A stretch of 63,325 bases of DNA, the filler included, from Dimorphilus gyrociliatus (Eukaryota; Animalia; Annelida), in NCBI GenBank assembly GCA_904063045.1. It is 3 parts of 3 records of this genome, joined end to end, with 100 filler letters (N's around TTAATTAATTAA, not from the genome) between each part and the next. Parts side by side here need not be neighbours in the genome. Positions count along the whole stretch, not along the records: positions 1 to 26,804 come from CAJFCJ010000116.1; positions 26,905 to 50,701 come from CAJFCJ010000169.1; 1 more part is not named here. One strand, 5' to 3'. Under the pieces are notes generated by a model that worked only from the letters and a program-made list of their open reading frames with translations, was not told the origin of the DNA and ran no database searches. The translations under genes and the position numbers were made by a program. Below are positions 6,388-50,801 of this stretch, piece by piece; the first letter of the stretch is position 1; each line of letters starts with the position of its first letter.

Positions 6388-7878
6388 TTATAATTTTAAA
6401 AATGTAATAAAACTGTACGAATTATCTCTAATCTTCAAACATTCTTGTTTACTTAAATTACAAGATTTGAAATTGATACACCAAAGAGTTTTTGACAATT
6501 TAGCAAGTGTTTTATAAACATCAACCATTTCTCTTCCTATATCTCCGTTATTGGCTAGATTGATTTTACCTATGTTTGAACAACTATTCAATAGATTTTC
6601 TATACTCTTCCATTGTTCTCTATTCAAATTACAGCTGTCAAAATTAATATCTTTTAAAGTTGTTGATGAGCTATGAAGTCCTTCACAAATGTATTCAAAA
6701 CCATTTCCGATATTTTTACAGTGTGCTATATTGACTGTTTCTATATTGGAACAATTTTTTAACAGATTTCCTAACCGTCTAGATTGTTGGGCGTTTAAAT
6801 TACAATTTTCAAAATTAATATCCTTTAATGTTTTGGAAGAACGAAGGAGTTGTTGATAAATATCGGATAATCCTTGTCCCATCTTCTCATTCCAACCCAT
6901 ATTAATTTTTTCAATTTGAGAACAATTATTAAAAAGTTGAACAATGTTTCTACTTTGTCCCAAGGTCAAATCACAATATGAGACATTAATATCCTTTAAA
7001 GTAGCTGAGGAGTTGACGAGTCCTTGACAAATATCTGAGAATGCGTATCCCATAGTCTTATTCCAACCAATATTTATTGTATCTATTCTGGAACATTTTC
7101 CTAAGAGATATCCAATTTTCCTGCAATGTTCTTCGTTTAAATCGCAATTTTCCAATTGTATTTCCTTTAAAGTGCTGCTCGAATGAGTTAATTGTTTACA
7201 AATGTTAAATAATCCGCTACCCATCATATGATTCCATGTTAGATTTATTGCTTCAATTAGATAAGAATTACGTAATAAATTTCCAATCTTTTTACTCTGT
7301 TTTTCATTTAAATTACAATGGTTAAGATTAATGATTATGAGCTGATTATCTGATTGTTGAAGAGTTGTATCAAGTAATTTTAGCTGTTCATCTTGTATCT
7401 GCCTCTCAGATAAGTCAATTAGTTTCTTTTCTTTTTGAACATCTGTCTGAGATATTTTTCTATTCCTATCCTCTTCTTTATCTTTTTTTTCGTCCAGTTT
7501 AAACATTGGAAGAACTGTACAATCCGCATGAAGTTCTTTCCAGCATAAGACGCATATATTTTTTATTTGGTGCGTTTCGCAATAAAGAGACGACTCCTTT
7601 TTATGTTGATGACAAAAGCTATTGTTTATTGATAGTTTTTCAATTGAGCTCTCTAACCGATTTTTTGGTAGATTAGTAACTTGACCTTGAGGGAGAGTAC
7701 AATTTTGCCTACATTCTGGACAGGTAATTTGAAAATTTTCATTTGGTAATTTATTCAAACATTCAAAACAAAAAGTATGTTGACAAGGCAATACTTTGGG
7801 ATTATTTTCAATCCAAGATTCTAGGCAAATAGCGCATATTAATTGTTCATCACTGATAAAGTATCCACAGGTAGCCAT
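6388..7878 (-). CDS. RING / B-box / short linker / RI-type LRR protein (TRIM-LRR A), intronless, 496 aa
   Basis: C3HC4 RING CAIC...PCQHTFCFEC...CPEC. B-box CHQH...CETH...CVLC...HADC. About 11 LRRs alternating LKDINFxxCxL (28 aa) and IExINxxWNxxMGxGL (29 aa). Confidence 0.9.
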   Translation of the reverse strand: MATCGYFISDEQLICAICLESWIENNPKVLPCQHTFCFECLNKLPNENFQITCPECRQNCTLPQGQVTNLPKNRLESSIEKLSINNSFCHQHKKESSLYCETHQIKNICVLCWKELHADCTVLPMFKLDEKKDKEEDRNRKISQTDVQKEKKLIDLSERQIQDEQLKLLDTTLQQSDNQLIIINLNHCNLNEKQSKKIGNLLRNSYLIEAINLTWNHMMGSGLFNICKQLTHSSSTLKEIQLENCDLNEEHCRKIGYLLGKCSRIDTINIGWNKTMGYAFSDICQGLVNSSATLKDINVSYCDLTLGQSRNIVQLFNNCSQIEKINMGWNEKMGQGLSDIYQQLLRSSKTLKDINFENCNLNAQQSRRLGNLLKNCSNIETVNIAHCKNIGNGFEYICEGLHSSSTTLKDINFDSCNLNREQWKSIENLLNSCSNIGKINLANNGDIGREMVDVYKTLAKLSKTLWCINFKSCNLSKQECLKIRDNSYSFITFLKL

Positions 7879-8254
7879 TTTGAAAAGATCTCTTTCTTCA
7901 CCTGTAGCTATGTCTTTGATACTGAAATGTTAACTAGTGTATATCATAATTCTTATCAGATAAGATGTACTTTAGATGTTCAATGCCATTGTAAGCCATG
8001 CTAATTTTAAAATATAAGATGCCAACGTTTTCAATCGATCGAGCCAAGTTTGTATTTTATCATGAGAAAGTTGTGGGTAGAGGACGGATCAAATACAATC
8101 TAATTAGTATATTCTACTTGATAGAAATGTAGAGGTAGGCGAGTACAGAACAATACGTTTGAGAACTTCCCTGATCTCTGCCAATTAATATATTATTAGG
8201 GTGGGAGTGATGTATCCTGCGTTAATGTAGTATAAGAGTCATATCTAGCCTTAA

Positions 8255-8400
8255 AATTGTAGGAATTTCTGCTTCTTCACAACAGAAATCATCCTTTTCA
8301 TTCATTTACCATTTTGCCAAAGTACCGGTCTAAATAGAACCTCAAGTTCGTCCACAAAAATACCAACCTTTAGAATGAATTTAGTATTAAATATTATTCT
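8255..8400 (-). repeat. Degenerate copy of the interspersed repeat found at 29175-30110
   Basis: The reverse complement reads TTTGTGGACGAACTTGAGGTTCTATTT...GTACTTTGGCAAAATGGTAAATGAATGAAAAGGA...GCAGAAATTCCTACAATT, collinear with 29983-30085. Confidence 0.7.
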
Positions 8401-9137
8401 AACTCCTACGAAATAAAGGTCTTCGCAAAGTTCTATCATATCTAAAGTCTAAATATCACTATGTCATTATTTCTAAGTATACAATTGTAAAGAAATGTAA
8501 AGAAATAATGTTAGCATAATTACATGTTACATGATAACATGATATTATAATTAAAATATGACTCAGGTATGGAAAGTACAACTTTTCATAAACAATGTAA
8601 TTAACATCCCTTCTAAAAGAATATGATACTGAGATGTGGGAAAATTAGAAAACCCTTTTTGCACATATGGAACTATTTAAGATTTAATGATCATATGATT
8701 CTCTTAATTTGAAGTGTAACAAGGTGTTTGATAAATGTAATTTGAATTATTTTTATAAATGAAAGACGTTACTTTATCCAGAACGAAAACAATAACAAGT
8801 GTATGAAGCGTCTGAAAAGTTCGACATTCGCCTTTTCAAACTTATTTGTTTCTTTACTATTTGAATAGTGTTTCACTTGTCATAGACCAACATTCTACTT
8901 CCTTTGATCTATAAATAAATATGTACTAATAATTTTTAAATATCAATATATCGTTATTTCAAAGTATATATTTTGCTAATTGGAATGTTTTAGGCCTGCG
9001 AGTGGGCGTTTAATAGAGTATGTCTATCATTTTTAGCTCATAGAAGAGATACGTATCATTCTAAAAACAGGGCTTTTATGACCGGATAATGAAAAGCTGG
9101 CCATTTATTAGAGAGTTGAGTATGATAATTATAGTCA

Positions 9138-10154
9138 ATGATGGATAGAATGATAAACTTCATACCATATTTTGTTTTCGATGGGAAAACTATGAATAAA
9201 AGCGAAGAAATCTTATTTTCCGATTATGTACAAATGTTTAATACTTTTTTCAAAATGAAATATAATATCTTCTTTATTATTATATCAATTTTCTATGCTT
9301 TAGTTGTTATCTATGGAATAATTGGAAATATTCTTATAATTATAATATTCGCAAAAGGTAAATATTATAAATCTACTCAATATGGATTCTTTCTTCAATA
9401 TCTCGCCTGGATGGACCTATTTTCGTGTATTTTCTCAGTACCATTAATTTATCATAGAGATATTCAAATACTCTTTTTACCAATAACAAATCAAGTTATT
9501 TGCAGTGTTTCAATAAGTTTACAAGATATTTTTCCATGGAATTCCATAACGATTCTCCTTCTAATTTCCGTTGAAAGATTTTTTGTAATTGTTAAACCAT
9601 TCACAAAAATCAGTAAAAGAACATGGAGGTCAATATGTTTATTCTATTTTATGATTATATTCACAACCTCTATTCTACATTCCATTCGTAATGACTCTAC
9701 TCAAGAAAAAAACTACCTGTGCTATCCAACAAGTGGCAGTAGTGGCAGTAGTATTACTGGTAAAATTGTTATGGTTGTAGCAGTATTTATGGCTATTGGT
9801 GTGCCAATAATTTCAACTGCATTGTATATTGTTATGTTTTATTATTTGAAAAAGCAAATGTCTACAATACGATACGTTTCATCAGTAGCAAATTCACAGT
9901 CTTGTCAGAAAAATAAAGGAATTAAACCTAATAGAAACATTGTTAGACAAATGTTTCTTTGTTTTTATCTTGTTGTTATTTTTATTGTTTTCACCTTTCC
10001 ACAAATCATTTCCGCTTCCGGAATAATTAAAGTTAACGAATCTATTTATTATCATATAATTTATTTAAATAATGTTATAAATTTTGGTGTTTATTGCATT
10101 AAATTAAAGTCTTTTAGAAACGATGTTAAATCTTTATTACGAAAAAATAAATAG
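9138..10154 (+). CDS. Intronless class A (rhodopsin-like) orphan GPCR
   Basis: Seven hydrophobic segments with GN (TM1), LAWMD (TM2), ISVERF (DRY-like), FTFP (TM6) and NNVINFGVY (NPxxY-like). The true start may be a downstream Met. Confidence 0.88.
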   Translation: MMDRMINFIPYFVFDGKTMNKSEEILFSDYVQMFNTFFKMKYNIFFIIISIFYALVVIYGIIGNILIIIIFAKGKYYKSTQYGFFLQYLAWMDLFSCIFSVPLIYHRDIQILFLPITNQVICSVSISLQDIFPWNSITILLLISVERFFVIVKPFTKISKRTWRSICLFYFMIIFTTSILHSIRNDSTQEKNYLCYPTSGSSGSSITGKIVMVVAVFMAIGVPIISTALYIVMFYYLKKQMSTIRYVSSVANSQSCQKNKGIKPNRNIVRQMFLCFYLVVIFIVFTFPQIISASGIIKVNESIYYHIIYLNNVINFGVYCIKLKSFRNDVKSLLRKNK

Positions 10155-10279
10155 TCCAAATTTCCCTATTTGGACTATTCTTTAACTAAAATATCACTGT
10201 GCAGTACGTTGTGCCATTGCTAAAACTACAAATGATGTATAACTAGTGCCACCTGTCGTATAAATAATCAGTTGCAATT

Positions 10280-12620
10280 TTAAAGACAAAGAAAAGTTGG
10301 CGGATTACAGTGCATTGGTGTTGTTAAAACTTGTCCAATAAAGTAACTTTCATTAGCCGGTTTAATAAAAAGAGAAGAAAGCGCAGTCAAATTCGATATA
10401 CAGCAAACTTTTTCAATAAAACTATAAGAGAATATTAAACAATATTTTTCATTATTACAAATATTAAAACAATCTTTTATAGATTGTTCTATTTTCCTCA
10501 TTTGACACGAAATATCTAAAGTAAATGTTGAATTCTGTATAATTCTAGTTTGCAATTGGCAACTGGAATTCTTTCTAACGTCCTTCTTTATGTTTATAGA
10601 ATAACCCCAAACTTTTATTTCGCAAATTTGTATAGAGTTCAACGAATTTGATTCAATAGATAGCTGATTACCATTTAGACGTCTCTCGCAATTTATTTCA
10701 ATAAAGTAACGATTCTTTTCTGATGTTGCTTGAAAACTTTTGCACAGCTGCCTATTTTCGCTCTGAGTTTTATTTTGAACGAATACTTTAAGTAGTAAAT
10801 CTGTTTTGAATAGATAAATTGATTATAACTGTTGATACTCGCCAGAATATTCATCATGAGATTGTTGAATAACTATTTGTTCAACTGTAAAATCACCATC
10901 AAAAGTGATTATTAAATGTTTAGCATGACTTAGAAGTGTACATGAACTTTCTTTTGATAATTTTGTAACATTGTTAAAATTACCATCAATAGCTTTAACC
11001 GTTTGATTAAAATATGCTTTATTATCTTCATTAGAGAAGGCTTCAATTAGAGGTATATTAATAGGATTAATTTTATCGACACTAACGTCATCTTCTTGAT
11101 TTTCAGGTATAGAACCAAACACATTTTGCTGGCATCAATTTGATTATATTCAATAGAATTTTGTAAGAGAACGTATCTGCCAAGGTTATATTTAATCGAA
11201 CAGTTCCATATTAATAATTCCCCGGCACGGTTCATATCAATATCTGTAATATTCTCACAGTCTGTCGTCCTAATCAAGAATTCTTTGGTCAAATTCTCTC
11301 TTCTTTTAGCAAATTGAAAATTGATATAATATCTTTCAATCTGCCACTCTTTATAAATTGAAAGAAAAAAAGAACAAAATGATGATTATCATATTTATCT
11401 AAATATTTATTTATTATTTATACCTTGTTTCTTGGGTATTGAAAGAATACCAACATTTTTAATATTATAAACACGAAATAGGTCAATTGCTATCCAATTT
11501 ATTATATTTATCTGTTTCTGCAAAATGTTTCCCACTAAATCCATCAGTTGCAAAGTATGGAGAATAATATTGATCTTTATTTTTCATTGTCGATGACCAT
11601 GCAGGTTTACCTCGGGCAATATTTGAAAATTTTTCATCTACATAAATAGTATATTAATTTAAGTTAGAATTTATGCAAAAGTAATAATGATTAATTACCA
11701 GTTTTGTCGCTATGAAATAAACCCCAAACTTTTACTTTACCAAATTTTGTATATTTTGTTAAATTTAAAATAATAAATTGAGCTAGAAAGTGTTGATTGC
11801 ATGGCATAAAGAGGTATTCGCTGTAAATCCTTTGTTCATGAAATGATGTACATAGCTCTTTTATAATATTTCCTTCGTTAGGGAAGAGAACATTTTGAGT
11901 TGAAAGGTAAATGTCTAAACCAGAAGTGGTAATGTTAAATAAATCTACACCATAAATAAGATAAATTCCTTGGATATCCAATATGAATTTTGGTAAAATG
12001 TCATAAAACCATGGCTGGAACAGCACATTTGTATCATACTCTTGTACAGAATAACCCGGGTAATTAAAACTGCTAACTGAAGAAGAAAATGCCTCTGCTT
12101 GAAGAGCTAAATCGCCTGTATAAATTGTTTAGAATTATAAATATTAAGAGAATTCTGGTATCATGTGACCAATAAAATTAATTATTCAAAATACTAACTG
12201 GTAAATATTTCAATTTCGCATATTGTTATTTCTGAAGTAGATGTTGAACTAAAGTAGACAAATCGACCAGTACTTGTACTTGCCTACATTATATTTTCCG
12301 GCTGACTGAACACCATAGCATAAATTTCTATAATATCTTGATTTTTCCCTTGAATCTGGTTGAGTAAAATGCACTGCATTTCCGGAAATTTTAATCATTT
12401 TCTGTATTATCTCATCTTCTTGATTCAATCCTTTCCAACCATCATAATTTTCTGTAAGCGCGAAACCCGACATTGAACACTTGGTATTCGTTCTCCAAAG
12501 TATCTCTAAGTTACTTAAGTCACTTGTTAATTTTTTGTGGGATTGTAGTTTAACTTCTATCACATGACCTAAGATTTGAAGAGAAAGAAGAATACCATAA
12601 AGGATAAAAGTCTTGGCCAT
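10280..12620 (-). pseudogene. Secreted multi F-type-lectin/F5-8C-like domain protein with C-terminal PAN/apple domain, frameshifted
   Basis: Signal peptide MAKTFILYGILLSL. Domain motifs NIARGKPAWSS...ATDG...WIAIDL, GRYVLLQ, IQICEIKVWG and GRFVYF...ITICEIE. Terminal C..IC....C..FSY PAN motif. Frame breaks inside domain motifs near 12270, 12205 and 11138. Confidence 0.65.
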
Positions 12621-12877
12621 TGTTGAAAAAGATAAATGAAGGATATCGTTTAAATAGTTATTGATGCTTTTAAAAAATATTTGCCTGTTCTTAAATATTT
12701 ATACATTCTTTCCTTTTTCATTGATTTTCTTCGCCTACAGTGTATTCTATCTTAATAAATTAATAAAATTAATAAATATCCATTATTTTACAAGGTCAGA
12801 ATCGTCTCTTATAGAAAATTACACGCTTTTCTTAACTTATTCAAGAATTTGGCCTACTTACACCTAAAGAAATTTTA

Positions 12878-13084
12878 GGGGCCGACAGAAAACGTCCCCA
12901 AATGAGATTTTTGAAAGCAACATTTCGGATTGAAAAATTGTTGGAAGGAGTAAAGTAGCTTTTGATTTATAGTTAGGGGGGTTCCATCTAAGGGTTAGGA
13001 GCAATCAAGAAGGTTAAGGAGAGACAAGGGGTAGGTTAGGGTTAGGGTTAAACCATGAATTTGGGGACGTTTTCTGTCGTATCC
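12878..13084 (+). mobile_element. MITE family A (Mutator-type), 207 bp, internal TTAGGG repeats
   Basis: TIR core CGACAGAAAACGTCCCCAAA / TTTGGGGACGTTTTCTGTCG. Perfect 9-bp TSD GAAATTTTA at 12869-12877 and 13085-13093. Confidence 0.9.
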
Positions 13085-13501
13085 GAAATTTTACTATCTT
13101 TCATCTGAAGATATTGATTACAATTAGACCTACATTTCTTAAATTAAACAATTTTTTTTTTGTTATTCAAATTTGATAGTCGATTTCTAAAATCCTTACT
13201 TTTTGTTACACTTTAAGTAAAACCACATAAGGTTGGAGTCACGTGACAATTATAACCATGTAACCTTAGAAATGTTACATTTATGACTTCGCTCTGACGA
13301 CGTTACATTTGCAACCACGCAGAACCTAATGAATACATAGATATTTTATCGCTATCTAAACAAACTACAGTAGAGACATCTATAATTTATAACGAACTAA
13401 ATATTTCCTCAGGCTATAGTTTTTTCGGCAATTTATAGGTGGCTCTAATAGTATTGAACTATGGTCTTTAGAAGTTGATTAAAGCTGTTGGAGAATAAAA
13501 C

Positions 13502-14599
13502 ATGGGACCATTCAGCTTAAAATATATTGTTTTCATGGCATCAATAGCAGTCTATTTTTACAGGCAAAACGTAGCTAATTTCATAATATCGAATGGATTT
13601 TTTCGTGAAATAATCAATCATCATCCAGGAAAATGCCGTGTTTTGAACGGTATTAAAGGCTCTGAAGATATGCATCAATTATCGAATGGTAAGGTTATTA
13701 TAACCTCTGACATTGGTAATATTGCAGATCCAACGAATCAACTACCAAATCACAAAGGACGCCTTTTTACAATTGATTTAGAAAGTGTTGCTAAGAAATT
13801 AATTGAATTAGAATTACCAAAAGAATTGGAGGCAAGTAATTTCTTTCCACACGGTATTAGCGTGCTGGAAAGGCCTGGAAAATTTCCCTTGGTCTATGTC
13901 ATCAACCATCCAAGGTTGTCTTCGGACAGAGTAGAGAAACTGGAATGGGATATTAACACAAACAAATTAAAATATTTGAAATCTTTTACTGATCCAAAAT
14001 TCACTTTTATCAACGATTTAGTCGTTTACGAAGAAGATGTATTTTACGTAACGGTCTTTTTAAGGTCTACTTCAAGGTTTATGAGGGAAATCGAAGGAAC
14101 TTTTAAATTACCTCTTGGATACGTTCTATTATATAATCACGGTGAAACTTCAATACAGGCGGATGGATTATCTATGCCAAATGGTATCAATTTATCAAAT
14201 GATAAGAAACTGCTCTATCTTGCCGAAGGTGGATCTTACAACATTCAAATTTTTAAACGGCATGGTATTGAAAAATTGGAATTAATTCAAAATGTTCCAT
14301 TGCATACCATGCCTGATAATATTTCTGTGGATAAAAATGGCGATTTACTTATTGGTTGTCATCCAAAACTTATTGATGTATATTTCCATCTCCATGACAA
14401 CAGCTTAATATCTCCTTCTCAAATACTACGAGTGAAAATTCAAAACGATAGAGCTCAGTCAGTAACTGAAATTTTTGCAGACAACGGAAACCTGGTGAAG
14501 GCTTCTACAGTTGCTGTTGTGAATAAAAATGCTCTACTAATTGGTACAATAGGCAATGAACTTTTATTGTGTGACATTCATCAAGATTATTTGCCTTAA
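13502..14599 (+). CDS. PON: Paraoxonase/arylesterase (PON family), intronless, 365 aa
   Basis: N-terminal hydrophobic anchor. Conserved PON motifs GKC, GSED, PHG, NH, INDL, PNG, PDN and CHP plus the C-terminal Cys. Six-bladed propeller calcium and catalytic residues appear intact. Confidence 0.93.
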   Translation: MGPFSLKYIVFMASIAVYFYRQNVANFIISNGFFREIINHHPGKCRVLNGIKGSEDMHQLSNGKVIITSDIGNIADPTNQLPNHKGRLFTIDLESVAKKLIELELPKELEASNFFPHGISVLERPGKFPLVYVINHPRLSSDRVEKLEWDINTNKLKYLKSFTDPKFTFINDLVVYEEDVFYVTVFLRSTSRFMREIEGTFKLPLGYVLLYNHGETSIQADGLSMPNGINLSNDKKLLYLAEGGSYNIQIFKRHGIEKLELIQNVPLHTMPDNISVDKNGDLLIGCHPKLIDVYFHLHDNSLISPSQILRVKIQNDRAQSVTEIFADNGNLVKASTVAVVNKNALLIGTIGNELLLCDIHQDYLP

Positions 14600-15368
14600 A
14601 TGAATAAAATAACAATAGAATAACTAGAAACAACTGTGTTTTATAGCGACTGTATATAATATAAAGAGTGAAAAATATAAACGGTACAAGGTCAAGGACT
14701 AGTGATAAGTTTATTATAAATTAAAATTATACTTAATAAAACAAACAAAGAAGAAAAGGCTACAATGTTGTTTGTTTAGATTATAATCTTTCATTTTTAA
14801 CAATGTCTTTTGCTTGAGAACAGTTTTGACAAACATCCTAAAATTATAAGTAAGCTCTTTCATATGGCTGATACTATCATCAATTGCAAGTGCAGCAGCT
14901 GCAGCATTATGATTATCTTGATGATAGTGAGGAGGAAAGTCAACAGTCGTATAATGGCCACATTTTTATTTAACATTACAAATTGCTCTACACACGAAAG
15001 GTATTTCTTTCTTTCTAAAAAAAAGAAAAGTAAATAAAAAATCTTAGTATCTTTTCATCAATATTTTAAATTTACTTGATAGAATATATGATCTTGGAGA
15101 TGTATGCATTTAAATGACAATTGATGTTGAAATAATAATTTTAAATCTTTAATAACATCTTTTAAACAGATTAAATACTGAAAATTATTCAAGAAATTAT
15201 CATCAAATGAATGTTTTCATAGGAACCAAAGCTTTGTTTTTTAATGAAAAATTCATCATTGTTTATAAAAGATATATCTACAGAGAGTGAGAAAGAGAGA
15301 GACGAATTTCATAAAATAAATTGATTGGCCCTAATTTGTTTTGTCAAGCTACATACGAAGAAAGCTAT

Positions 15369-15576
15369 GGGTGGGGGTGCGAATGTACCCAAGGAGGGTT
15401 GAAGCCTACCTTAATATATCTGAAGTTGAGTGTAATATCTGTGTTTTTTGATATTCCCTAACCCTAAGTTGGAGCCCCTTTAACAATAAATTCATTCAAA
15501 TATTCAAATTAACCCTTTCCTAAAATGTTTTCAGGGTTGGAAATATTTACTAACAGGTACGTTCGCACCCGACCCC
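15369..15576. mobile_element. MITE family B (Mutator-type), ~208 bp
   Basis: ~21-bp imperfect TIRs GGGTGGGGGTGCGAATGTACC / GGTACGTTCGCACCCGACCCC. 9-bp TSD (G/A)AAAGCTAT (8/9 match). Internal CCCTAACCCTAA. Confidence 0.8.
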
Positions 15577-15710
15577 AAAAGCTATTACTTGGCTCTATGA
15601 TTCTGCCATTTCAGCATATCACAGAGCGCTTTATATATAATTGGATTAAGTACTTATTTGGTATGAAAAATGCCATAATAACAACATAAATATCATTTTG
15701 TATATTCACA

Positions 15711-17200
15711 TTAAAAAATAATGATATGATTCCTGAAAATGCATGTATCATTGACTAATGAACCACCCACGAAATGGCCGCCTATCCAAACAACAACCCA
15801 TTTATTGTAGTTTATATTTGTTAACAAACCTAGTACGGATAACGGTGTCGATATTAGAACGATGGAAAATGATATAACATAGACGGTTGTAGATATTTCT
15901 TTGGTTTTGTTGAGTTTCTCTTTTAATGTGTAGCTTCTAACATATATAAATATATTAAGGTAAAGGCAACATATAAATAAACTTTGAATGAATGGTATAA
16001 GATTAAAGAAGAGAAATGAATATATCCATCCTTCACACTTTTCCTTTCTTATATAAATATTAAGGCAGATTGTTGTCTTTGAATAGAATTCCTTAAAAAT
16101 ATCCCAATAGAAAAACAATTAAATAAACACCTTTCCAAGTGATTTTAGTTTGGAAAAACTAAAATAAGATAAGATTAGGATGAAGATGGATTCATCCGTC
16201 TCTTTCTCTCTCTCTCTCTCTTGCCAACTTACTGTATATTGCACATTCAATATTATTATTAAAATCACCGCAAATATAATTGTTATCAATGTGAATACAT
16301 ATTTAAATTGTTTAATTTTATATTTTTTAAAAGGATTCATAATAACTGCGTATCTTTCCATTGCAATTAATAGAATACTTGACGTTGAGGAGAGCAATGA
16401 AAATGACATTAAACAATGACGCAGATGGTATATTGTACTATTTCTCCATTCTTCTTCATTTGCTAGAAAAGACTCATTGTTGTAATAAATATCGTCAATA
16501 CATATTGAAATGATATAGATTGACACTAGAAAGTCGGCTAGCGATAAATTCAATCTAAACAATTTTAAAAAAAACAACTTGAGAATGATATTAAGAGAAT
16601 AAAATTCGCCAATAGGCTTATTATTCCAAAACATCAAAATAGAATTTTAATATGTCTATTCGGAGTGACAAGTGATAAATTTTGGTGGTAATGGAGTACA
16701 ATTTACTTCTGATCCATGATATTTATCAATAAAGCAACATTTTTGAAATTTTTCGGCAATGATAGTTTCAATTCGTTTGAGTAGTTTTAAATTTTTCGCC
16801 ATACCATTTAATGGAAGTTTTGTCCTTTTCATTGATATTTTTCGAATGGTGTAAAAATTTTGAAAGACGCCATCTTCTTTTTCTATAATAAAACTAGATT
16901 ATTACAGACTACAGACTATTCGCTGTATAAATAAGATAAAATTCCTTTTATAAAGACTCTTATAATTTAATGACCTATGACATTAATAAGTGGTACTGAT
17001 AATGGGCCAGTAGTTTCAGATGCTTTTTGACAAACAAAAGATCTTATTTCTAAGTCGTCAATTCTACCATCAAATAACAATACACCAAAACCATACAATT
17101 TTGAATAATAGAAGTAAAGTAATCTATTTTGGAAAATTATTATTAATAAATTTAAATTAGAAAAAAAACTGGTACCAAAGATTTAGCCATTTAAATTTGA
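15711..17200 (-). pseudogene. LRR-containing GPCR (RXFP/GRL101-like LGR) pseudogene
   Basis: Hinge CC...CTPLPPKFITC, LNLSLADFL (TM2), WRNST, IAMERY and EFYSKTTICL (after an intron containing a GA microsatellite), then TM5-7. Around TM1 there is a frameshift, a TGA where W is expected (KILF*CFGIISLLANF) and a second frameshift. Decayed LRRs lie upstream. Confidence 0.75.
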
Positions 17201-17284
17201 AATATCTTTGTAAAATTTCTTTGAAATGTTTCTTGTGCCTTAAAATTCTACTAATACTAAATCCTTTCTGGGGAGCAAAAAAAG

Positions 17285-17535
17285 TTATCATCAGTAGTAT
17301 CCCTATCTACTTGCAAGAATTTTTTAAGGAAACATAACTTGAGAGGCTATGTTGCAGCAAAAAATCCTCTATTAAAAAAAAGGCATTTAATAAATAGGAG
17401 ACAGTTTTGTAAAAGACTCCTCTCTTGGAACAAAGAGCAAATTAATTCAATTGTGTTTTCAGATGAGACAAGGATAGGTTTATATCCAAAACACAGGCAG
17501 TTTGTCAGAAGGCATCCAGCAGATAGATTTTTTTT
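17285..17535 (+). mobile_element. Tc1/mariner transposase fragment
   Basis: RKHNLRGYVAAKNPLLKKRHLINRRQFC...W...IVFSDETRI matches the Tc1 second HTH and the start of the DDE domain (FSDE). Truncated; no TIRs seen. Confidence 0.85.
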
Positions 17536-18559
17536 AAAATATATATACAGAATATACATTTAATATCATTTCTCTCTACTGGAAGAATTTGATTTGTAAC
17601 AAGTTAATATTAATCTTTCATTTATCATTTCATCCTACTATTCACTAGAAAATAAAAAATATTACATTCTTATGACAATTTAATATAATTTTTATTTTTT
17701 TTTACAATTTGCAACAAGGCTTCCAAGACTTTAATGAAACAGCATCATCGTCAATTTTTGATAGATGAAACTCAAGTAATGAATAGGTTTTTTTGTATCC
17801 TAATTCTCTGCACATTTGACCTAACAATAACAGATTGAAATAATTTAAAAACATATTTTGTTATAATTATTGAATAAATAGAATTATCATCAGTTTCAGC
17901 AAATAAATATCCTTTAACGTAATTTTCATTTTCCTTAATTGGTTGATGAACAAATAATGCCATAATTTCGAAAGAAGGGAATGTGAAAAAATTGATAAGC
18001 AAAGTGAAAACGCCGTATTTAAACATAATGTTAATAAAGGACAAAAGAAAATGTAGTTGAGAGAAAACTAGCATAAGTTTATTTTTTAGATACTAAACAA
18101 ACATCTTTAAATGATAGTAAAAATTTATTTTTTCAAATTATATCAGTTTACGCAAATTAATAATCTTTTTCCTTTCTCTTCAATTAAGAACTTATTTGTC
18201 CAGAATTAAAACTTCATGGATATGTACTATAGCAGTATTGAGATAGAGAGAAAAATATTTGAAATTTTAGACTTGGAGGACTATTGGATGATGAACTATT
18301 AGTTCAAACATCATATATTTATGCTCCATTGTATTCTTTCTTTAATTTCACTTTTTTCCTATCTTTTATCTTTCATAGCTAAATGTTTCTTTATTATCAG
18401 TGTCTTATTGTCATTCAGTGTCTATTTATAAATAAAATGGCTAGAATTTCATGGGTACGTTTTCACCCATGTATGGTTTCACCTGCTGCCTTCAAAACAT
18501 TCTCTCTACCAACAAAGCGTACGGTTTTTCGTCATTATTCCTATCATTTTAAATGTTCT

Positions 18560-20270
18560 ATTCAAGTTTTGCTGCCAACTAACTTGTATCTGTCTACATA
18601 TGTCTGGTACTACATCAAAGCCATCTATTAAACAACAACTTTCATTGCGTAATTTTTAAAATATCAAAAGGTATGCTATTCCTTTGAAGAAGATTTGTTA
18701 TCTCGATATTTTCCCTCTCATCTAGATCGCATTTCTCAAAATTAATATACTTTAAAGTGTTTGTTGATTATTTGATGGATGAACTAGAAAACCTTTGCAA
18801 ATACTCTCGCAAGCGTTTCCATTCATAAAGTTATAATTAAGATTAATTGTTTCCATGCTGGAGGAGATTTTCAACAATTTATGTAACTTTTTACACTGCT
18901 CTTCGCCTAGGGAACATTTTTCAAAATTTATATATTTCAAAGTATTTAACGAATAAGAAAGTCCTTCGCAAATGTTTGAAAATCCTTTTTCCATTTCATT
19001 ATTTTGCGATAATTTGATTATTTCCAATTTCGTACAACATTTAAAAAGTTTTCCCAATCTAGTGCATTGTTCTTTATTTATCTTACAATTGTCAAGATAA
19101 ATATTCTTTAGAGCATTCGACGATTGAACGAGTCCTTCGGAAATCTTTGAAAATCCATATTCCATATTATCATTCTTTCTGAGACTGATTGTTTCTATTT
19201 TGGAGCAATTTTTCAATAATTTTCCTAAACTATTACATTCTTCTCTATTTAAATTACATTGATCAAAATACAAATATTTCAGAGCATTGGACGAATGGAT
19301 GAGTCCATCGCAAATATTCTGTAATCCTTCATTCATATAAACGTTACTTCCTAGATTGATTTTCTCAATTCTCCGACACGTTTCAAGTAAATTTCCAATA
19401 TATTTACAGTCATCATTAAATAATCTACATTCCTGAAAATCGATGCATTGTAGAGAATTTGATGAATTGGCTAAACCTTCGCAAATTTTGGGCAATCCAG
19501 TTGAAGAGATTTTAAAAAGATTTTCCAACTGTTGGCAATCTTCTTCTATCAGTTTACAACTTTGAAAATTAATAGTTTTTAAATTATTTGATGATTCGGT
19601 AAGTCCTTTACAAATATCTGACAATCCATTTTCAGTGATTCTGTTATTGCTTAGATTAATTGTTTCAATTCTATAGCTAAGTTTAAACAGGTTTCCTATC
19701 TCTCTACATAGCTCTTCATCAAAGGCGCAATTATTCAAATCGATCCTTATTAATTGTTCTGATGATGTCAGCGTATCGTGAATTATTTTTAGCTCCTTAT
19801 CTCCAATAATTCTGTTGGATAGGTTTAATAAACACGTTCCCTCCAATTGTGTAGTGGCGAATTGCGTTAGTTTCGAATTATTATTCAAGGCATAATCTAT
19901 TCTGATATCCTCAAAAATTTGTATATCCAATTGTTTAATATTTCTAATGATATCTTCTATCTGTTCATTTAAATATTTTCTTGAATAATTTCTGTCTTTT
20001 TTCATTCTCCTCTATAAAGATTCTTTTAATATTTTCAAATTCATCTTTCAATTTTGTTATGGCTCTCATTTCAAATTCAACAATTTTATTTAAAATTCTA
20101 TCTTTATTAGTTTCTTCTTTAGTTAGAAAACATTCAATAACATCTTTTCTATATGAAGACCAATAGGAATTGTTTTGATTTCTTTCCATATCTAAATCAG
20201 ATTGATTTTTCTTCACCTCTCCTTCGGATAGAATACAGTTTTGTCTACATTTCAGACAAGTAATTTCCAA
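18560..20270 (-). pseudogene. TRIM-LRR B, decayed paralog
   Basis: Only the second half of the RING survives (ITCLKCRQNC) and the B-box is lost. Frameshift between coiled coil and LRRs (~19990), an in-frame deletion in one LRR (LFKISS-TGLPKIC), and a further frameshift at ~18755 after which TLKYINFEKCDL continues in another frame. Confidence 0.82.
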
Positions 20271-21323
20271 ATATTTTGTAATCAGTATTTATATAAGTAT
20301 CAAGGTGATATTGATTATTTAGTGAAAGTCGTCCCCATTTTATAGTGTCCATAAACTTACTTGTAAACAATAGACAGTTGAATCAAAAAACAATGATATA
20401 TTTTATCACATGATGGCTATAAAAAAAGACAATTTTTGTCCAGTTAAATTCTGAAAAAAAAATTATCGTGCTATCTTCACTAGTTAATATTCATCAATCA
20501 GGAGATTTGCGATCTTTATCATTTATTCGTAAATATGAATTACTATTGAGAAGTTTGTAGTAAAGATAATACCGATGCTTTTTGTCTTTGTTCGTTTTGC
20601 AACCCTTTACAATTGTTGCTGATTACCAATCTTCTTTCAAATGAGCTTTTTGATGTATTAGTGTTGTAGAGAGCATTTTTCATTTAATTCATGAATATTT
20701 TGAATAGCTGTTATATACTGAGGATAAATATTGAGATATGAAAATTATTAATATTCATTTAATGAAATGGATTTTTTAATTAAATTTGCAGAATAATACA
20801 ATAATTATTTTGCATACTTCGAGTTGATGACTAACTTTAGCATAGACTTATAGCATAAATAGGAAGAACGTATTCTCTTCCCCATCATGTTAGTCCTACA
20901 TTTTCAAATCTCTCATTGTTCATATAGCTCATCCGGACCAACAAAGTCGTTTTGGCAGTGATATTTAAAGAAGAAATACTCGATATAATTATCAGCTATA
21001 AGTTAATCTGCAAATTGCAAACTGAGCTTGACGTGGATTAAAAATAATTAATGCCACTTTTATGACGGTTATTTTATACCTAGTATAGTAATACAGAATA
21101 CCTAACGCTCTGAACTAGGTCAATTCAATGAAATGTTTGACCTACCTTTTGTATATTATTATAAAATTTAAAGGAGAAAAATGGTTTTTATTTATTTATT
21201 AAAAAGTGAAGAAAATATTAATTGACATTACAGTGATGCATTTTTTTATCTAAATAACAAGGAAAATAAGGAAAGAACGCACAAATGCAAAAGAAACACA
21301 CCAAATATTTGATGCAGGACTTG

Positions 21324-22214
21324 TTAAGTAGTATTTGATGAAGTAGTACTCTTTTTATTTGAATCTTGAATTTTACTTTTACAGAAATGTTTATAAAAAG
21401 CTGTTTGTAAAATATTAAAGAATTTCTTATGAAATATTAAATAGATAAAGCAGTTTGTTGAATTATTAATAATATACATTCTATGTAGAATAGGACCACT
21501 TGTCTTTTCAGTTAAAACATTTATATATAAAGGTAACCAAGAGGCTATAAATATCAATGTTGTACCGAAAAGCATAAGAACTGTGCGAATTTCGGAAAAT
21601 TTTTCAAAGTTTTTCCCCATTTTTCGATGATTTTCATTCCTTTTCTTCAAAATAAAAAGAATATACGAATACATTAAAACCAATATAATAAAGCAGGCGA
21701 TTTGTCCATAAATAAGTATAGTAGTATTGAAGTTTGAACTTTTACTGACCTTGAGAAGGCAGTTGTATGTTTCGTTATTAGTTTGTAAAGTTAATGATTG
21801 AAAATGAATAATTTGATTAATATGAGAAAATAGAACGATTATCAAAGATATAGCATTTGCTGAATAGATTAGTTTTAATGATAGCAAATGAGGTTTGAAC
21901 ACTGAAATCCATCTTTCGAATCCTACTAACACGGTTAAAAGGAATGAATAACTTACAAAACAATAGGATACGTAAGTGTAAATTTTACACACAATAAGAT
22001 GCTTTGTACCATGTATGTTGAAATATAATGTAAAAGGTAGGACAATACCGAGGTAAATAGCATCATTATAGGCGGTAACTTTAACAAAAAAATTCACCAT
22101 CTTACTCTTTTGGCTTTTAAATGGAAAATACTTTAAAATAATAATATTTGAAATAACTCCAATAATTATACATGGAATTCCAAACACTATTGTCCATTTT
22201 GCTGTAAAGTCCAT
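21324..22214 (-). CDS. Intronless class A orphan GPCR, very short N-terminus
   Basis: GVISN (TM1), TAYND (TM2), VGFERW (DRY-like), ASWLP (TM6) and NNSTNCFIY (TM7). Confidence 0.87.
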   Translation of the reverse strand: MDFTAKWTIVFGIPCIIIGVISNIIILKYFPFKSQKSKMVNFFVKVTAYNDAIYLGIVLPFTLYFNIHGTKHLIVCKIYTYVSYCFVSYSFLLTVLVGFERWISVFKPHLLSLKLIYSANAISLIIVLFSHINQIIHFQSLTLQTNNETYNCLLKVSKSSNFNTTILIYGQIACFIILVLMYSYILFILKKRNENHRKMGKNFEKFSEIRTVLMLFGTTLIFIASWLPLYINVLTEKTSGPILHRMYIINNSTNCFIYLIFHKKFFNILQTAFYKHFCKSKIQDSNKKSTTSSNTT

Positions 22215-22869
22215 TTTCTACATTTCTTTTTCAAAGTAGGCAGCTAAATAATAACTACAGTTGTTAGACGTGTCCAGCAGCAAAATGACATTTTTTCCCT
22301 CAGGTGTAAATAGTCTAGCCAAAAGATTTTTTTAGTTTAGGAAATAAAGCTAACTTAATAAGGAATTTTGACAAATTAGCCTTATTATTCTTGTGATTTA
22401 TTCTTGTTAAATACAGACCTTCGTCTGTACAATTGGCGTTATTATCCAAGTATTTTTATTATGCTTGATAATATCCATTTTATGCTTATACTTCATTATC
22501 ATGCCATAATCCTTATCTTAAGCTTACCTACTAATTATTCTCTATATCAGATTTGAATTCCAGCCAGCAGTTAATTCTAACAATTTGGTGTTAAATTTTC
22601 CGGATAAAAGCTTTTATTTTATGTTCTTTTAGATTACAGTATTAAAGACTATGATAGGCTTAAGATCATTGTCTTTTTAAATGATTATTAAAGTCTTAAA
22701 GTAAAATCTTTGTGTTTATGATTTCGGCCTGAATTTATCTACAAGTAGCCAACTTTTCTCTATACTCTTCCTGAAATCAAAAAATCGCTGCGTCTGTCAT
22801 TTTAAAGTTTCTTTGTTTAGATTTGTACATTGAAATGTACCGTTTTGTTAGAATTTCTTAATTTTTAGC

Positions 22870-25800
22870 AGATTTCATGATTTTTTTTCTACAATCGAAA
22901 AACTATGGAAAAAAGAAGGAAGGAAATGTGCAAAAATACTTTGTTCTCTTTAAGAGAAAATCGATCCATTGCAAAGTATATAAACAAAATATATTCTGTA
23001 TCATTACAGAAGAACGAAAAAATCAAAATCAAAGATCGTTGAATCTGTTCAAAAGTGTATTTATTCAGAATAATTACTGCCAACTGCAGTACAAGTCGGG
23101 ACTATGTTCTCAGTGTTTGATGTTTTTCCGTCTAAATTATGGATAAAATGTGATATTGAATACAAATATCACGGCATTAAGATAAAAGTATTGAGCAGAG
23201 TAGATTAAAGCTATACGCCTGCTTTCTTGAATCCAATTAATATATGCAACATTAGTATAAAAAGGAAATGTAACACAATAGACTGAATAGAAATCCTCTA
23301 ATTTTTCACTATGTCGAGAATTTTAAACGGAACGCCAGCTCTATCTGCCTTATCTGGAATATCTTTATCCGGAAAGAGCTTTGTTCTTGAATAGAATAAA
23401 TGTGGATCTTCTCTAAAGCCTTTTGGAAATATAAAAAAGAAGAGTTTTTCTAATAGATTATATCATTTTTCGCAGATGCTTATTACTTTAATTTTTTTCA
23501 TCACTGTCATACTTTTAAATTTGCTATTATTGTTCTATTTTGGATAACATAGTTAGGTCAAATCCAGCTTATCAATTTAATTCAAAAGGTTTTAATAAAG
23601 AGAGAGACAAAATTTGCAAAGTTTTAAGTTCATCTACTTTTCTGGAAGAAATGATTAGGAATCACGAAATCGTGATAAGCTAAGAGACTGTCACGTACCT
23701 GTTCTTCAAAAAAAGACACCTAAATACCTCTCTTACATTTTACAACCGTGATTTAAATGTAATTTATTAGCACTTGAATTTTTAACCTTACAAGTTATAA
23801 TATTCATAGTTGTAACCAAATAGCTTAAAAAGGAACATACGCTTAAAGTAAAGTATTGTTTTGTTGTAATTCAATTTTTTCTAAATAATATTATTTCTAT
23901 AAATTTTTGAAAACAGATTTAGAAAATAGACGAGTCAGAGATATGAGAATTCGCACCATCAATTTCTTTGGGTCCTACTATGAAGAATACATTACTCTCA
24001 CAAAATCTTTCTATTTCTATTCCATATGTTTTTCATAACAGTGTAACTAAGATCATTGCGTGTCTATACATATGTAATACAATGATGAAAAATAATGGTC
24101 TAGAAAGGGTTCTATTAATCTCATTCATATAATTGAATTCAAACAGCCCTATGTTTAATAAAAGTAATAATAAACAAAACAGTCAAAAAATATCTTCCAC
24201 GGTTGTTCAATGAAAAGCTAAAATTTAAGTTGATAATTGCTATTATACAACTCAACAAATGTATGGAAAAGTGTATAATGCAGTATGTAAACTAAAATTA
24301 GAGAATGGTATGTAAAATTCGAACAACTCTCTCTCCCTAATAATGCTTCTATTATTTTAAAAAAGACCAAACAAACTCAACAAAAAGTTCTACATAAATA
24401 CAATATTTCACATGTAAATTTTTCCATTCAAGTCTACAATGAAGATAAATTATCAATTATTGGAAAAGTTTTTGTTCAAGTGAAAAATGAAAGTTTCCTA
24501 AGAGTTTTACAGTACAAAGACAATCCTCCTTCCTTTACAAATAAGATTTGTAAATTTCTTGGATATGATGATTATCACTCTTACACAATGTATTCAAAAT
24601 TAAAAAATTCAAGTAATTTTATAGCAATTATTGCAAGTGCATATTTTCAAAATCTGTAAATTAATATTTTAAAACGATTTCACATAAACTCAATAATTAA
24701 TCTTTTCAACTATTTCAAGAGTTTCAAGGAATATCCACGTGATAAAACTTGCCAGCCTTGGTTAATGGCAGTCATTTTTGTATCATATATCTATAATAAA
24801 ATATATTTCTAATGAAAAATTTGATATCATATTATTAAACTTTTCATTGTCAATATCTAAAAAAAATTTTTCAATCCAGTTCTGGATAGGATATGTATGA
24901 TTCAATAGCATATTTTAATGAAAAGTCAATTGCAAATGATTATAAAATTCTTAGAGGCGTTCCACAAATATTTTTCGTAAATGAAAATTGGCATATAAAG
25001 TATTTGAACTATTTTAATAGTATGAAGATAGGCTCTTTTTATGGTTTCAACTATGGAACAGTGTTGAATACTGTATCTAATAAACACTTCCAAACGTTAT
25101 ATTCTTATAAAACTTTGAATTTTTCAAATGCATAAACCTTTCAACAATGCAATTTTATTGATAGGTAATTAAAGAATAAAGAAAAAAATCATAATTGGCA
25201 GACTGAAAGCCTCAAAAATTACATATCTTTCAGAATTTCAAGTATAGAAGAGCATCCATTTATAATTGAATGCTCAAAAGGAGAGAGTGATGAATGTATT
25301 GATGAAAATGTTATTACAGTATACGTTTGCTATTTTATATTTGAAAGAGGAAGATTAATAGATTTAGAAGAAATGGAGAAAATTTTCGAAAAACAAATTT
25401 AACATCAGCTGACTATCCTACGTTGAGAAAGTCATCTACCTTTTTAATATTACAAACATATATAAAATACGTACTTAAATCATCAGATTTTGTTGAAAGA
25501 ATATGTAAACAAAATATAAATGTGATAAATAAATGAGCGAAAAAAATTTATAAAGCAACCTATTTTCCAGATGCTAAAACTATACAAAGGCCAGGGAAGT
25601 CATGGTGACTTCTAGTAATTTTGATATTAGTTTACCGTTACTTTATGGGAAACAATTTGTAAATATAATAAATAATATTTTTTAAACCCAAATTAGAATT
25701 CAACATCTAGTTCATCTTACCTTTTCTTTACAGTTGTACAGTTATAGAAAATTAGTCCGGAAATTCATCTACATATTGCAATTAATACAGCGAAAGGTAT

Positions 25801-26460
25801 GACTTTCTGTCTCAAGATTTCATTTCCTACTCAAGTATCTTTTCTTGAAATACAAAAAAAACACTTTTTTTAATATTAAACTTGTCTTTTAGCAACAAGT
25901 GGCTTTTTCGAATATTGAGTTTAAAACTATGTTGGAAACAGTAATCACTTGTCAAAAAATTTTGTGTACTTTTGCACTATCTGAATAACCTGATAATAAA
26001 ATCAATGACTTTTCTGTTAAAAAGCTATAAAGAAACCCTTTGTGTCATTGGCATATTATAGAAAAATGGGTGAATACCCTGCAAATTGTTTTTTTTGTGA
26101 AAAATATGAAATCTTTTTCTATACAAATTCTAAAAAGAAAAGATAGTCTGTTCACTAAATAGAGAGGATGAAAATTGCTTGGCTGAAAAAGATGACTATT
26201 TTGCTTGTAATGATTAAAAAAAAGCAAATACACTTTTACCTAGTCTGCAATTGCAAAGAAGACTGTTTGGATGGTTCTGATGAAAAACACTGCAGTATGA
26301 AAAATTCATCAATTTCATCTCGTATTTTTTTTTTTAGATTTTACAGATTGTACTATAGATGAAAGGTAATTTTGGATATCTGTCTATTGCCCAAGTTTGT
26401 GATAATTAAATTAATTGTTTCAGTAAAATTGATGAATTATGTTTTGAATAAAGTAGGAAA
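22870..26460 (+). pseudogene. Decayed N-terminal part of an SRCR/LDLa (GRL101-like) receptor
   Basis: Fragments: KVFVQVK...KICKFLGY (resembles 61569-61991 KVKVTIK...DICLDLGF), ACND...VCNCKEDCLDGSDEKHC (LDLa), and a second LDLa with a stop (QVCDN*INC...DELC). No long ORF; boundaries approximate. Confidence 0.5.
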
Positions 26461-26804
26461 AGACTATTTTAATAGTCACCGTGAAACATGATATGACGGT
26501 GAAGACAATCCAGTTACTAAATCGTATAAAAATGGAGCCACCTGGCGGGAGTTTATATGACGTTACGTTTTAAAGGGGATCATGGCATTCTGTTGGCTAT
26601 TATAAACGTTACTTAGCGTAACTTATTTAACACTACTAACAGCTTTGATTTTATCTAAATAAAACGTATAGAAAAATTTTCTGCTTTAAAACAGCTAATA
26701 ACCACTTTTAGCTCTAGCTGCGTGATTATTTTTGAAAAAAATATCAAATAGCATCTACAGTTCGTTAGACGTGTCTAACAGCAAAATAACAGTATTTTAT
26801 GTTG

Positions 26805-26904
26805 NNNNNNNNNNNNNNNNNNNNNNNNNNNNNNNNNNNNNNNNNNNNTTAATTAATTAANNNNNNNNNNNNNNNNNNNNNNNNNNNNNNNNNNNNNNNN
26901 NNNN
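26805..26904. other. Scaffold gap with synthetic six-frame-stop spacer
   Basis: 44 N + TTAATTAATTAA + 44 N. Confidence 0.98.
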
Positions 26905-29026
26905 GATTGCCTAGTTTTCTGCTAATTTCTTCAGTTAAGTTACACTGCTCAAGGCTGATATTTTTCAAGCTATTTGACAAAGACATTGCATTAAATATGT
27001 CATCAAAATGATTACCTATATATGGATTTTTGCTTAGAACGATTGTTTCAATTCTTGTACAGATTTTCAACAATTTCTCTATGCTTTTACATTCTATTCC
27101 ACTTAGATCGCAATCTTCAAAATTGAGATACTTTAAAGTATATGCTGATTGGGCAAGTCCATCGCAAATATCAATTAATCCAGGGCCCATATTCTGATTA
27201 GATTTCAAATTGATTGATTCTATATTGGAACAATTTTTAAATAGGTTTCCCAAATTCCTACTTTCCTCTTCATTCAAATTGTAAGATTGAAAATTTAAAA
27301 TCTTTAAATTATCTATTAAATGACCAACTTGTTGATAGATGTTTACTAATTTCGTTTCCAAATTTTTTTCTGATCTGATATCTATAGTTTCTAGTTTAGA
27401 ACAACATTGAAATAATTTCCCAATCAGTTCACATTCTATTGAATTGATATAAGAACATATCAATTCAATACTTTTTAAAGTCTTTGAGGATTGAAACAGA
27501 CTTTCAATCATATTTTTCAGTTCAATGGGTTTATAACTATTGTTTCTTAGCTTGACTGTTTCTATTTTAGGGCAAGTTTTCAATAAATTTCCCAATGCTT
27601 CCAAACATTTATCGTCACTATCACAAAACACAACATTGATGTACTTTAAGCTGTTTGATGAATGTAAGAGCTCCTTTAAAATAATTTCTGCACCTTGGCT
27701 TGTTTTAAAACTTTCTACATGAAAACTTTCTATTTTTGAGCAATCTCTCAGAAGAATACCAAGATTTTTACATTGGTCATTATAGAAATTTAATCCTGTT
27801 ACAGTTATCTGCTTTATGGTGTTTGCTGAAGAAATGAGTCCTTGAAAATATTCTGGATATATATAATTTTCGTAATATGCTATGTTTTGAAATTGTGAAT
27901 GTTTGAAATTTATTGATTCTAAGTTAGAAAAGTTTTTCAAAGAATTTCCCATTTCTTTCAAAGCCCATGAAGAGAAAGAGCAATGAGAAATATATATTTT
28001 CTTGAGAGTCTTTGACGAGATGAGAAGACGTGGTAAAATGTATTTTAAACAATTTTCTATTCCCCTATCATTTCCTTCTAAGTGTAAAGCTTGAATTTTT
28101 GAACAACATTTTATAATATTTCCTATGTTTTTACAATTCTCTTCACTGAAAGTGCAGTTATTGAAATATAGTTGTATCATTTTATCAGTTGAATATAGCA
28201 TGTCTTCTAGAAACTGGTGCTCTTGATAGCCAAACTCTCTAAAAGATAGGTTAATTATTTGAAATGGGGATTTCTCATCATTTTCCTTAATTTCCATGGG
28301 TTTTGGTAGTAGTATGTTACTGAGGTTTTCCATATGATTTTTGTCATTAATGTTAATATCATTTTCGAAACAATAATCTATTTTTATATTTTCCTTAATT
28401 TGTATATCAAGTCTTTTAACATTTTTTAAAATATCTACCGTATTACTATTCTCTTTTATTTGAGATTTGAAATATTTTTCCCTTTTTTCAATAAATTCCT
28501 TAAATTTACTTTTTACTCTGTCAAATTCATCTTTTACTTTTTTAATTGCTCTATTTTCGAATTCTTCAATTTTTTTTAGTTTTTCAATACTACTTCTCTT
28601 TTCTTCATTATGGAAATTATCAATTATTTCTTGTCTCCTTTCATATTTTATCATTGAAATAACTTTACAATTTTCATGCTTTTCTTCATAGCATAAAATG
28701 CAAATATTTTCTTTTTCATGTATTTCACAATAAAGTGAAGCCTCCATTTTGTGATCTCTACATAAATCTCTTTTAAATGATGATTTTTGTAATAAGTTTG
28801 AAATTAAATATTTGGGCAGCAAATCAATCTGTTTTATTGCTAGTCCACCATCTTGCTTACATATTTGGCAGCTAAGCAGGCCACTTTCATTTGCCAATTG
28901 TTTTAAACATTCAAAACAGAATATATGTTGACAAGGAAGTATTCTTGGGTCATTTTCTAGCCAAGATTTCGAACAAATATGACAAGTTAGCTCTTCCGTG
29001 TTGATAAAATAACCTTTGGCAGCCAT
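26905..29026 (-). CDS. RING / B-box / coiled-coil / RI-type LRR protein (TRIM-LRR C), intronless, 3' end in gap
   Basis: ATG at 29026 (MAAKGYF). RING CHIC...PCQHIFCFEC...CQIC, B-box CRDH...CEIH...CILC...HENC, ~70-aa coiled coil, then ~16 alternating 28/29-aa LRRs. The ORF is open up to the N-run. 30/47 identity with the N-terminus of TRIM-LRR A. Confidence 0.9.
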
Positions 29027-50701: not shown

Positions 50702-50801
50702 NNNNNNNNNNNNNNNNNNNNNNNNNNNNNNNNNNNNNNNNNNNNTTAATTAATTAANNNNNNNNNNNNNNNNNNNNNNNNNNNNNNNNNNNNNNNNNNN
50801 N
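50702..50801. other. Scaffold gap with synthetic spacer
   Basis: 44 N + TTAATTAATTAA + 44 N. Confidence 0.98.

Follow-up and report, generated by a model that had tools for sequence, protein, structure and literature searches.

The three genes described here lie on the minus strand of a 63,325-nt stretch of DNA from the annelid Dimorphilus gyrociliatus (assembly GCA_904063045.1), which is joined from parts of three records and is referred to below as the window. Two of them, gene A (6388..7878) and gene C (26905..29026), join an N-terminus of the TRIM type, i.e., a RING and a B-box, in one reading frame to an array of leucine-rich repeats (LRRs) of the ribonuclease-inhibitor type (RI-type), as had been claimed in an earlier reading that was made from the sequence alone; the third, gene B (18642..20270), is a broken paralog. 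That sequence-only reading had taken the three for like TRIM-LRR paralogs, each with a RING and a B-box and, in some, a coiled coil. The minus-strand copies do belong to one family, but they are unequal: the RING and B-box are present in gene C with a coil and in gene A without one, whereas gene B retains the last CxxC of the RING and no B-box. All three are old paralogs: their local nucleotide matches are about 65-70% identical, their proteins are 28-42% identical, and tblastn matched the paralogs at E of about 1e-63. Domain and profile searches found no NACHT domain in any of them.

Three unequal paralogs

Gene A is an intact open reading frame (ORF) of 496 residues that encodes a RING, a B-box and 12 RI-type LRRs, the coiled coil having been deleted. 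Its C3HC4 RING (7711..7836, minus strand; residues 15-56) was recognised by Pfam zf-RING_UBOX at E=1e-8 and carries I17, L19, P54 and the linchpin R57, i.e., all three of the catalytic features that were scored. The B-box2-type zinc finger (7519..7614, minus strand; residues 89-120) has 8 of its 8 ligands; Pfam zf-B_box gave no score for the B-box of either gene A or gene C, and the call rests on this eight-ligand pattern. The LRR array (6421..7428, minus strand; residues 151-486) comprises 11 strictly alternating 28/29-residue repeats from residue 180 and an extra capping repeat from residue 151, which was seen in an AlphaFold2 model that was built from 11 sequences. In this model the array is confident (predicted local distance difference test, pLDDT, mostly >90), the RING is of low confidence, and a single 20-residue helix, with no coiled coil, runs from the B-box to the LRRs. 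The alignment with its relatives revealed a large deletion, and the linker between the B-box and the LRRs is the shortest among the 35 family members measured. We class gene A as a TRIM-derived RING-B-box-LRR protein rather than a full RING-B-box-coiled-coil (RBCC) protein.

Both Foldseek and a profile search placed the LRRs of gene A closest to ribonuclease inhibitor and the NLRPs (TM-scores of 0.57-0.62), and the LRR profile matched ribonuclease inhibitor at E=9e-45. The repeat counts, this profile match and the horseshoe obtained with AlphaFold2 and Foldseek agree on alternating 28/29-residue RI-type repeats, which is what had been read from the sequence. Ribonuclease inhibitor and the NLRPs have the same alternating repeats and horseshoe fold, but their identity is 17-20% and genes A-C are without the NACHT domain of the NLRPs; thus, the fold is held in common and the ligand is not.

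Gene C encodes at least 707 residues, in which a RING, a B-box and a coiled coil precede 16 or more RI-type LRRs; the 3' end of the gene is lost in an N gap, which the reading enters at 26904. In its RING (28859..28984, minus strand; residues 15-56) Q replaces P at position 54 and the linchpin is K57. The B-box (28667..28762, minus strand; residues 89-120) has the eight-ligand pattern and was confidently modelled, and it is followed by a coiled-coil helix of 68 residues (28451..28654, minus strand; residues 125-192). The model of residues 1-245 (pLDDT 88) consists of the RING, the B-box, the helix and a return linker, and the best Foldseek match of this N-terminus was the RBCC of TRIM28, with the RINGs of TRIM2, TRIM21 and TRIM23 also found. 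The dimer predicted for gene C is the antiparallel one of TRIMs, in which residue 142 would lie against 183 and 164 against 164; the homodimer scored 0.40 against 0.00 for the best control, the runs shared at least 49% of their contacts and the partner pLDDT was at least 65. In microbes, 21 of 30 solved pairs reached the score mark used, compared with 0 of 23 single chains; in animals, 7 of 16 reached it. The pass of gene C may reflect the predictor's memory of TRIM coils, which have already been solved.

In gene B, half of the RING is missing (the remnant at 20270, minus strand, is its last CxxC) and the B-box ligands have been lost. A frameshift near 20000 parts the remnant of the coil (20150-19980) from an LRR-only ORF of 417 residues (20005-18752), a second frameshift lies near 18770, and one repeat pair measures 43 residues instead of 57. 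An upstream exon carrying the missing half of the RING was searched for in the window and was not found. Gene B would be a pseudogene or an LRR-only decoy. Contigs of run X1, a run whose kind is unrecorded and which is possibly not independent of the source of the window, span 6477-8400 (gene A) and 18300-20307 (gene B) with 0 differences from the window, and so the RING-LRR junction, the lost coil of gene A and the breaks of gene B are no obvious assembly slips; the parts that X1 leaves uncovered are uninformative.

The TRIM-LRR family and its origin

With gene C as the phmmer query, a database of 1.84 billion sequences, each representing a 50%-identity cluster, gave 791 matches at E<=0.001, with 158 at 1e-10 and 70 at 1e-30. 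The best 150 of the 791 were classified with local profiles together with four proteins of the window, one further LRR match and 15 outgroups, i.e., 170 proteins. The N-terminal RING/B-box followed by LRRs was found in 41 of them, genes A and C included; a VHL-box-like start followed by LRRs was found in 28, a NACHT domain followed by LRRs in 25, and a RING/B-box followed by a beta-rich non-LRR tail in 14. The RING/B-box matches in P0115 and P0120 were internal and spurious, and were rejected. These 41 proteins with a shared layout and the 70 matches at E<=1e-30 support a large, lineage-restricted family, in line with the lineage-specific class that the sequence-only reading had suggested. The source was looked up for 19 of the 39 TRIM-LRR proteins from outside the window: eight came from D. 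gyrociliatus and 11 from Logan contigs, with no member from another named animal among these 19. The same species is also the source of proteins of the other classes (P0053, P0055 and P0081; P0062; P0140). Overall identity among the TRIM-LRR proteins is about 30% and the number of repeats varies from 1 to 19 units. The RING is intact in 36 of the 41; among these, the linchpin is K or R in 26, the Pro is present in 27 and loop 1 has an I, L or V in 32. Across 50 aligned proteins the eight RING ligand positions are invariant or nearly so, and the B-box ligands are 90% conserved.

The tails that define the TRIM classes include SPRY, NHL, FN3, PHD-bromo, MATH, ARF and TM, and the LRR tail of genes A and C fits none of the described classes I-XI. 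It is the C-terminal domain that determines TRIM specificity, and LRRs were not found among the TRIM tails described. In the open literature searched, i.e., the accessible text of PMC3503706, PMC11992055, PMC4878042, PMC4852459, PMC8195603, PMC9334734, PMC6564038 and PMC7854359, we found no TRIM described as ending in LRRs; the eukaryote-wide TRIM survey (PMC3503706) contains neither 'LRR' nor 'leucine' in its accessible text, and the five text supplements of PMC7854359 held nothing relevant to the family, which may be listed in Extended Data Fig. 5 of that paper. TRIM-LRR is a real TRIM variant that is previously undescribed in the literature searched. The earlier suggestion that LRRs lie outside the standard TRIM classes therefore stands as far as this literature goes, but the layout is not unique, being also found in ciliates.

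The nearest known relatives are found among the RBCC proteins, namely the RINGs of TRIM2, TRIM3 and TRIM56 (class VII-like, with an NHL tail). TRIM2/3 was matched by profile at E values of 1e-17 to 1e-21, and the best PDB matches were TRIM2, TRIM3 and TRIM56. The C3HC4 RING, B-box2, coil and predicted antiparallel dimer are the same, but the known proteins end in a filamin/NHL or SPRY tail, whereas here the tail is an RI-type LRR array and the coil is short (68 residues) or, in gene A, absent. In a 32-row RBCC tree the 11 TRIM-LRR rows grouped together (99/95) within a larger clade that also contains eight non-LRR sister TRIMs (99/97); for this tree, and for the approximately unbiased (AU) test based on it, the rows were chosen, the model was LG+G4 and long branches were present. 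A quick 72-row RBCC tree, from which seven rows without an intact RING had been excluded, kept 35 of 36 TRIM-LRR rows together (Shimodaira-Hasegawa-like approximate likelihood-ratio test, SH-aLRT, 92); a single sister row and a single fragment also fell among them, and P0160 and P0065 left their groups on long branches. The trees indicate that the TRIM-LRR RING and B-box descend from TRIM genes and are nested in a lineage-specific TRIM family.

The sister TRIMs (P0129, P0131, P0140 and 11 more) are proteins of about 500 residues with a beta-rich tail, perhaps a diverged NHL propeller. Their best PDB matches were TRIM3 and TRIM2; the tail had no match in Pfam and was weakly NHL-like in hmmsearch (E of 9e-5 to 0.03 against 0.3-1.2 for reversed sequences) and in hhalign (9.9% against 0.09%). 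One tail swap would be the simplest reading of the origin: a TRIM2/3-like family may have exchanged its beta-rich tail, in a single event, for an LRR array of the type found in the NACHT-LRR proteins (NLRs), after which copies would have been born and lost.

The ciliate counterpart appeared in the first search with P0010, in which a RING, a B-box and a coil precede a short RI-type LRR array. Its family (P0010 and P0020-P0034, with P0021 from Stentor and P0031 from Blepharisma) includes SteCoe_3630 of Stentor coeruleus as well as Blepharisma stoltei proteins, and is conserved at 40-95% identity. The domain order is the same as in the worm, and hhalign gave 98.9% along the RBCC and the first repeats, but the Stentor-type proteins differ in having about three repeats and in being conserved. 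Matches of gene A in the Atlas, all <0.9 and to be read as leads only, also included ciliate RING/B-box clusters, as well as B-box+LRR_4/8 clusters whose taxa are unrecorded. A single clade of the ciliate and worm proteins, as expected from common origin or transfer, was rejected by the AU test on the 32 rows (p=0.012), which makes convergence likely. This heterotrich family is apparently unstudied, and is TRIM-like without a MATH domain and outside animals. P0038 is a further RING-B-box-coil protein, with a tail that is LRR-like by eye and unscored by Pfam.

Shared repeats and the genomic setting

Of the 25 NACHT proteins, 19 matched the 57-residue LRR unit of the family at 32-63 bits and the remaining six at about 20 bits; in the 28 proteins with a VHL-box-like start the unit scored 50-78 bits. 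The LRRs of gene A are 33-36% identical to those of the NACHT proteins P0053 and P0081, and 26 of 91 proteins had their closest LRR in another class, with identities reaching 49%. The classes are intermixed in the LRR tree (91 rows, three of 94 having been dropped), in which 4 of 88 branches are starred. The gene model of P0053 has FLYWCH and MULE transposase domains between its NACHT and LRR, which may be an inserted transposon or a domain that has been integrated.

The VHL-box-like family (P0003, P0005, P0054, P0062 and 24 more) comprises candidate substrate receptors of cullin-2 RING ligases (CRL2). Its motif resembles the starts of ZYG-11 and ZER1. The Cul2-box consensus, which along with that of the BC box was taken from PMC4878042 (consulted in part), occurs in 26 of these 28 proteins, compared with 3 of 25 NACHT and 6 of 41 TRIM-LRR proteins; the strict BC box occurs in 12 of 28, compared with 1 of 25 and 1 of 41, and both boxes occur in 11 of 28. 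Since the same LRR stands behind a RING/B-box and behind this motif, it appears to have been coupled twice to likely ligase modules. FBXL, LRSAM1 and IpaH are LRR-guided ligases. In the CRL2 receptors LRR-1, PRAME and ZYG-11/ZER1 the LRR selects the substrate for ubiquitination (PMC4878042, in part), as is proposed here, but in genes A and C the RING is part of the same chain, within a TRIM frame, and the LRR is C-terminal. The fish NLR-B30.2 genes (PMC4852459, in part) likewise combine NLR and TRIM parts in a lineage-specific expansion, and are the mirror image: there an NLR acquired a TRIM-type B30.2 tail, whereas in the worm an LRR of the NLR type was added to a TRIM.

The neighbour of gene C, in head-to-head orientation, is an NLR (31659-38749, plus strand). 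It has a NACHT domain (Pfam E=2e-15), an ORF of 1652 residues and about 38 regular 28/29 repeats; its coding sequence is interrupted by short likely introns and its relatives are P0016 and P0173. Its long RI-type LRR array belongs to a different subfamily that was missed by the LRR profile of the TRIM-LRR family, and with an LRR identity of just 18-22% this gene was ruled out as the LRR donor. The other neighbours are ordinary: two intronless, rhodopsin-type G-protein-coupled receptors (GPCRs; 9138-10154, plus strand, and 21324-22214, minus strand), a paraoxonase/arylesterase (13502-14599, plus strand) and an LRR-GPCR-like exon (57201-58205, minus strand). An ENaC/ASIC channel ORF (3415-5700, minus strand) has a long helical insertion after residue 273. 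The GC content of 24-33% is that of AT-rich animal DNA, and the N stretches (26805-26904 and 50702-50801) each consist of two runs of 44 N that flank a 12-base spacer. The segment 56040-56192 (minus strand) bears a weak likeness (5 bits) to the B-box of the family, perhaps as a remnant or by chance. Between genes B and C, an X1 contig omits a 69-nt GT..AG stretch (23848-23916, plus strand) in a region without a long ORF, possibly a spliced non-coding or untranslated-region transcript; this is a weak hint of RNA in X1 and was not used as evidence of expression.

Possible function and significance

We propose that the TRIM-LRRs may be single-chain, LRR-guided E3 ligases that defend the worm against intracellular invaders, a reading of the sequences that we hold to be about evenly balanced. 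Ubiquitin E3 activity in some of the members is quite probable, judging from the RING residues. Both RING dimerisation and the linchpin matter, and TRIM tails set substrate binding (PMC11992055, in part). By analogy, the two LRR arms of a dimer would select the target, clustering on the target would unite the RINGs, E2~ubiquitin would be activated and the tagged target would pass to degradation or signalling; gene A, without a coil, might act as a monomer or as a B-box-linked oligomer. A defensive role, which taken by itself stands at roughly an even chance, is suggested by the expansion, divergence and decay of the family, by the LRR shared with NLRs and by the immune family expansions of the species, in which nine expanded families, mostly local duplicates, have been implicated in immunity (PMC7854359, in part).

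Several observations weigh against this proposal. The RING is not intact in five of the 41 proteins and the K/R linchpin is absent in 10 of 36; the coil is absent from gene A and the conserved Pro from gene C; and some TRIMs are pseudoligases (PMC11992055, in part). Hypervariability of the concave face was not seen in 142 and 146 repeats, in which its entropy was about 3.0 and 2.9 bits compared with 3.3 and 3.5 bits for the exposed convex face (means averaged by hand), and so a diversifying pattern receptor is not favoured. The closest solved LRRs include those of the oocyte proteins NLRP5 and NLRP14, which are non-immune by their entry titles, and the ciliate family of the same layout is conserved, which implies that this layout does not have to reflect an arms race. 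The LRR tree is poorly supported, and thus NLRs as the donor are not established. The strict BC-box consensus is present in just 12 of the 28 VHL-box-like proteins, and the motif of 20 of the 28 found nothing significant in PDB and Pfam, which makes it a motif-level lead.

Some of these observations would fit LRR-guided E3 ligases that act on the worm's own proteins, in the germline, development, transposon control or protein quality control, in the manner of the PRAME, ZYG-11 and FBXL expansions. The same LRR preceded by a VHL-box-like motif, an arrangement like that of CRL2 receptors that act on self substrates, the likeness to NLRP5 and NLRP14, which are not pathogen sensors, the concave face without hypervariability and the conserved ciliate counterpart all point in this direction. 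However, dozens of paralogs at <50% identity, with 1-19 repeats and with broken copies such as gene B, fit a conflict system, as does the LRR in common with NACHT proteins, and we regard self substrates as unlikely. Quite unlikely, in our view, is that TRIM-LRRs regulate the worm's NLRs, their LRR binding NLRs or NLR partners that the RING would ubiquitinate, with LRR-only copies of the gene B type as decoys; the 33-36% identity of gene A to P0053 and P0081 and the NLR head to head with gene C are consistent with it, and TRIM27 is said to control the NLR NOD2, but the LRR of that neighbour is the one of 18-22% identity that the family profile missed. Least probable, by a little, is that the proteins are mostly non-catalytic scaffolds or decaying duplicates with a relic RING, for although gene B is broken, the RING of P0004 is degenerate, gene A has lost its coil and TRIM pseudoligases exist (PMC11992055, in part), the RING ligands are nearly invariant across the 50 aligned proteins and the K/R linchpin persists in 26 of 36 despite about 30% overall identity.

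Because ubiquitination is easy to read out, the family offers a direct way to ask if LRRs of the NLR type bind non-self in invertebrates, and single-chain RING-LRR ligases would be natural scaffolds for targeted degradation. More tentatively, and less likely than not, this miniature annelid lineage might possess a modular cytosolic surveillance in which one fast-evolving LRR cassette is joined to a NACHT domain for oligomerisation and signalling, to a TRIM RING for direct ubiquitination and to a cullin-2 adaptor for degradation through CRL2. The TRIM-LRRs would then be a new TRIM class, one that turns NLR-type recognition straight into ubiquitination and that arose in eukaryotes on two or more occasions. 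Even in a genome as compact as that of this animal, many genes are devoted to the TRIM-LRR module.

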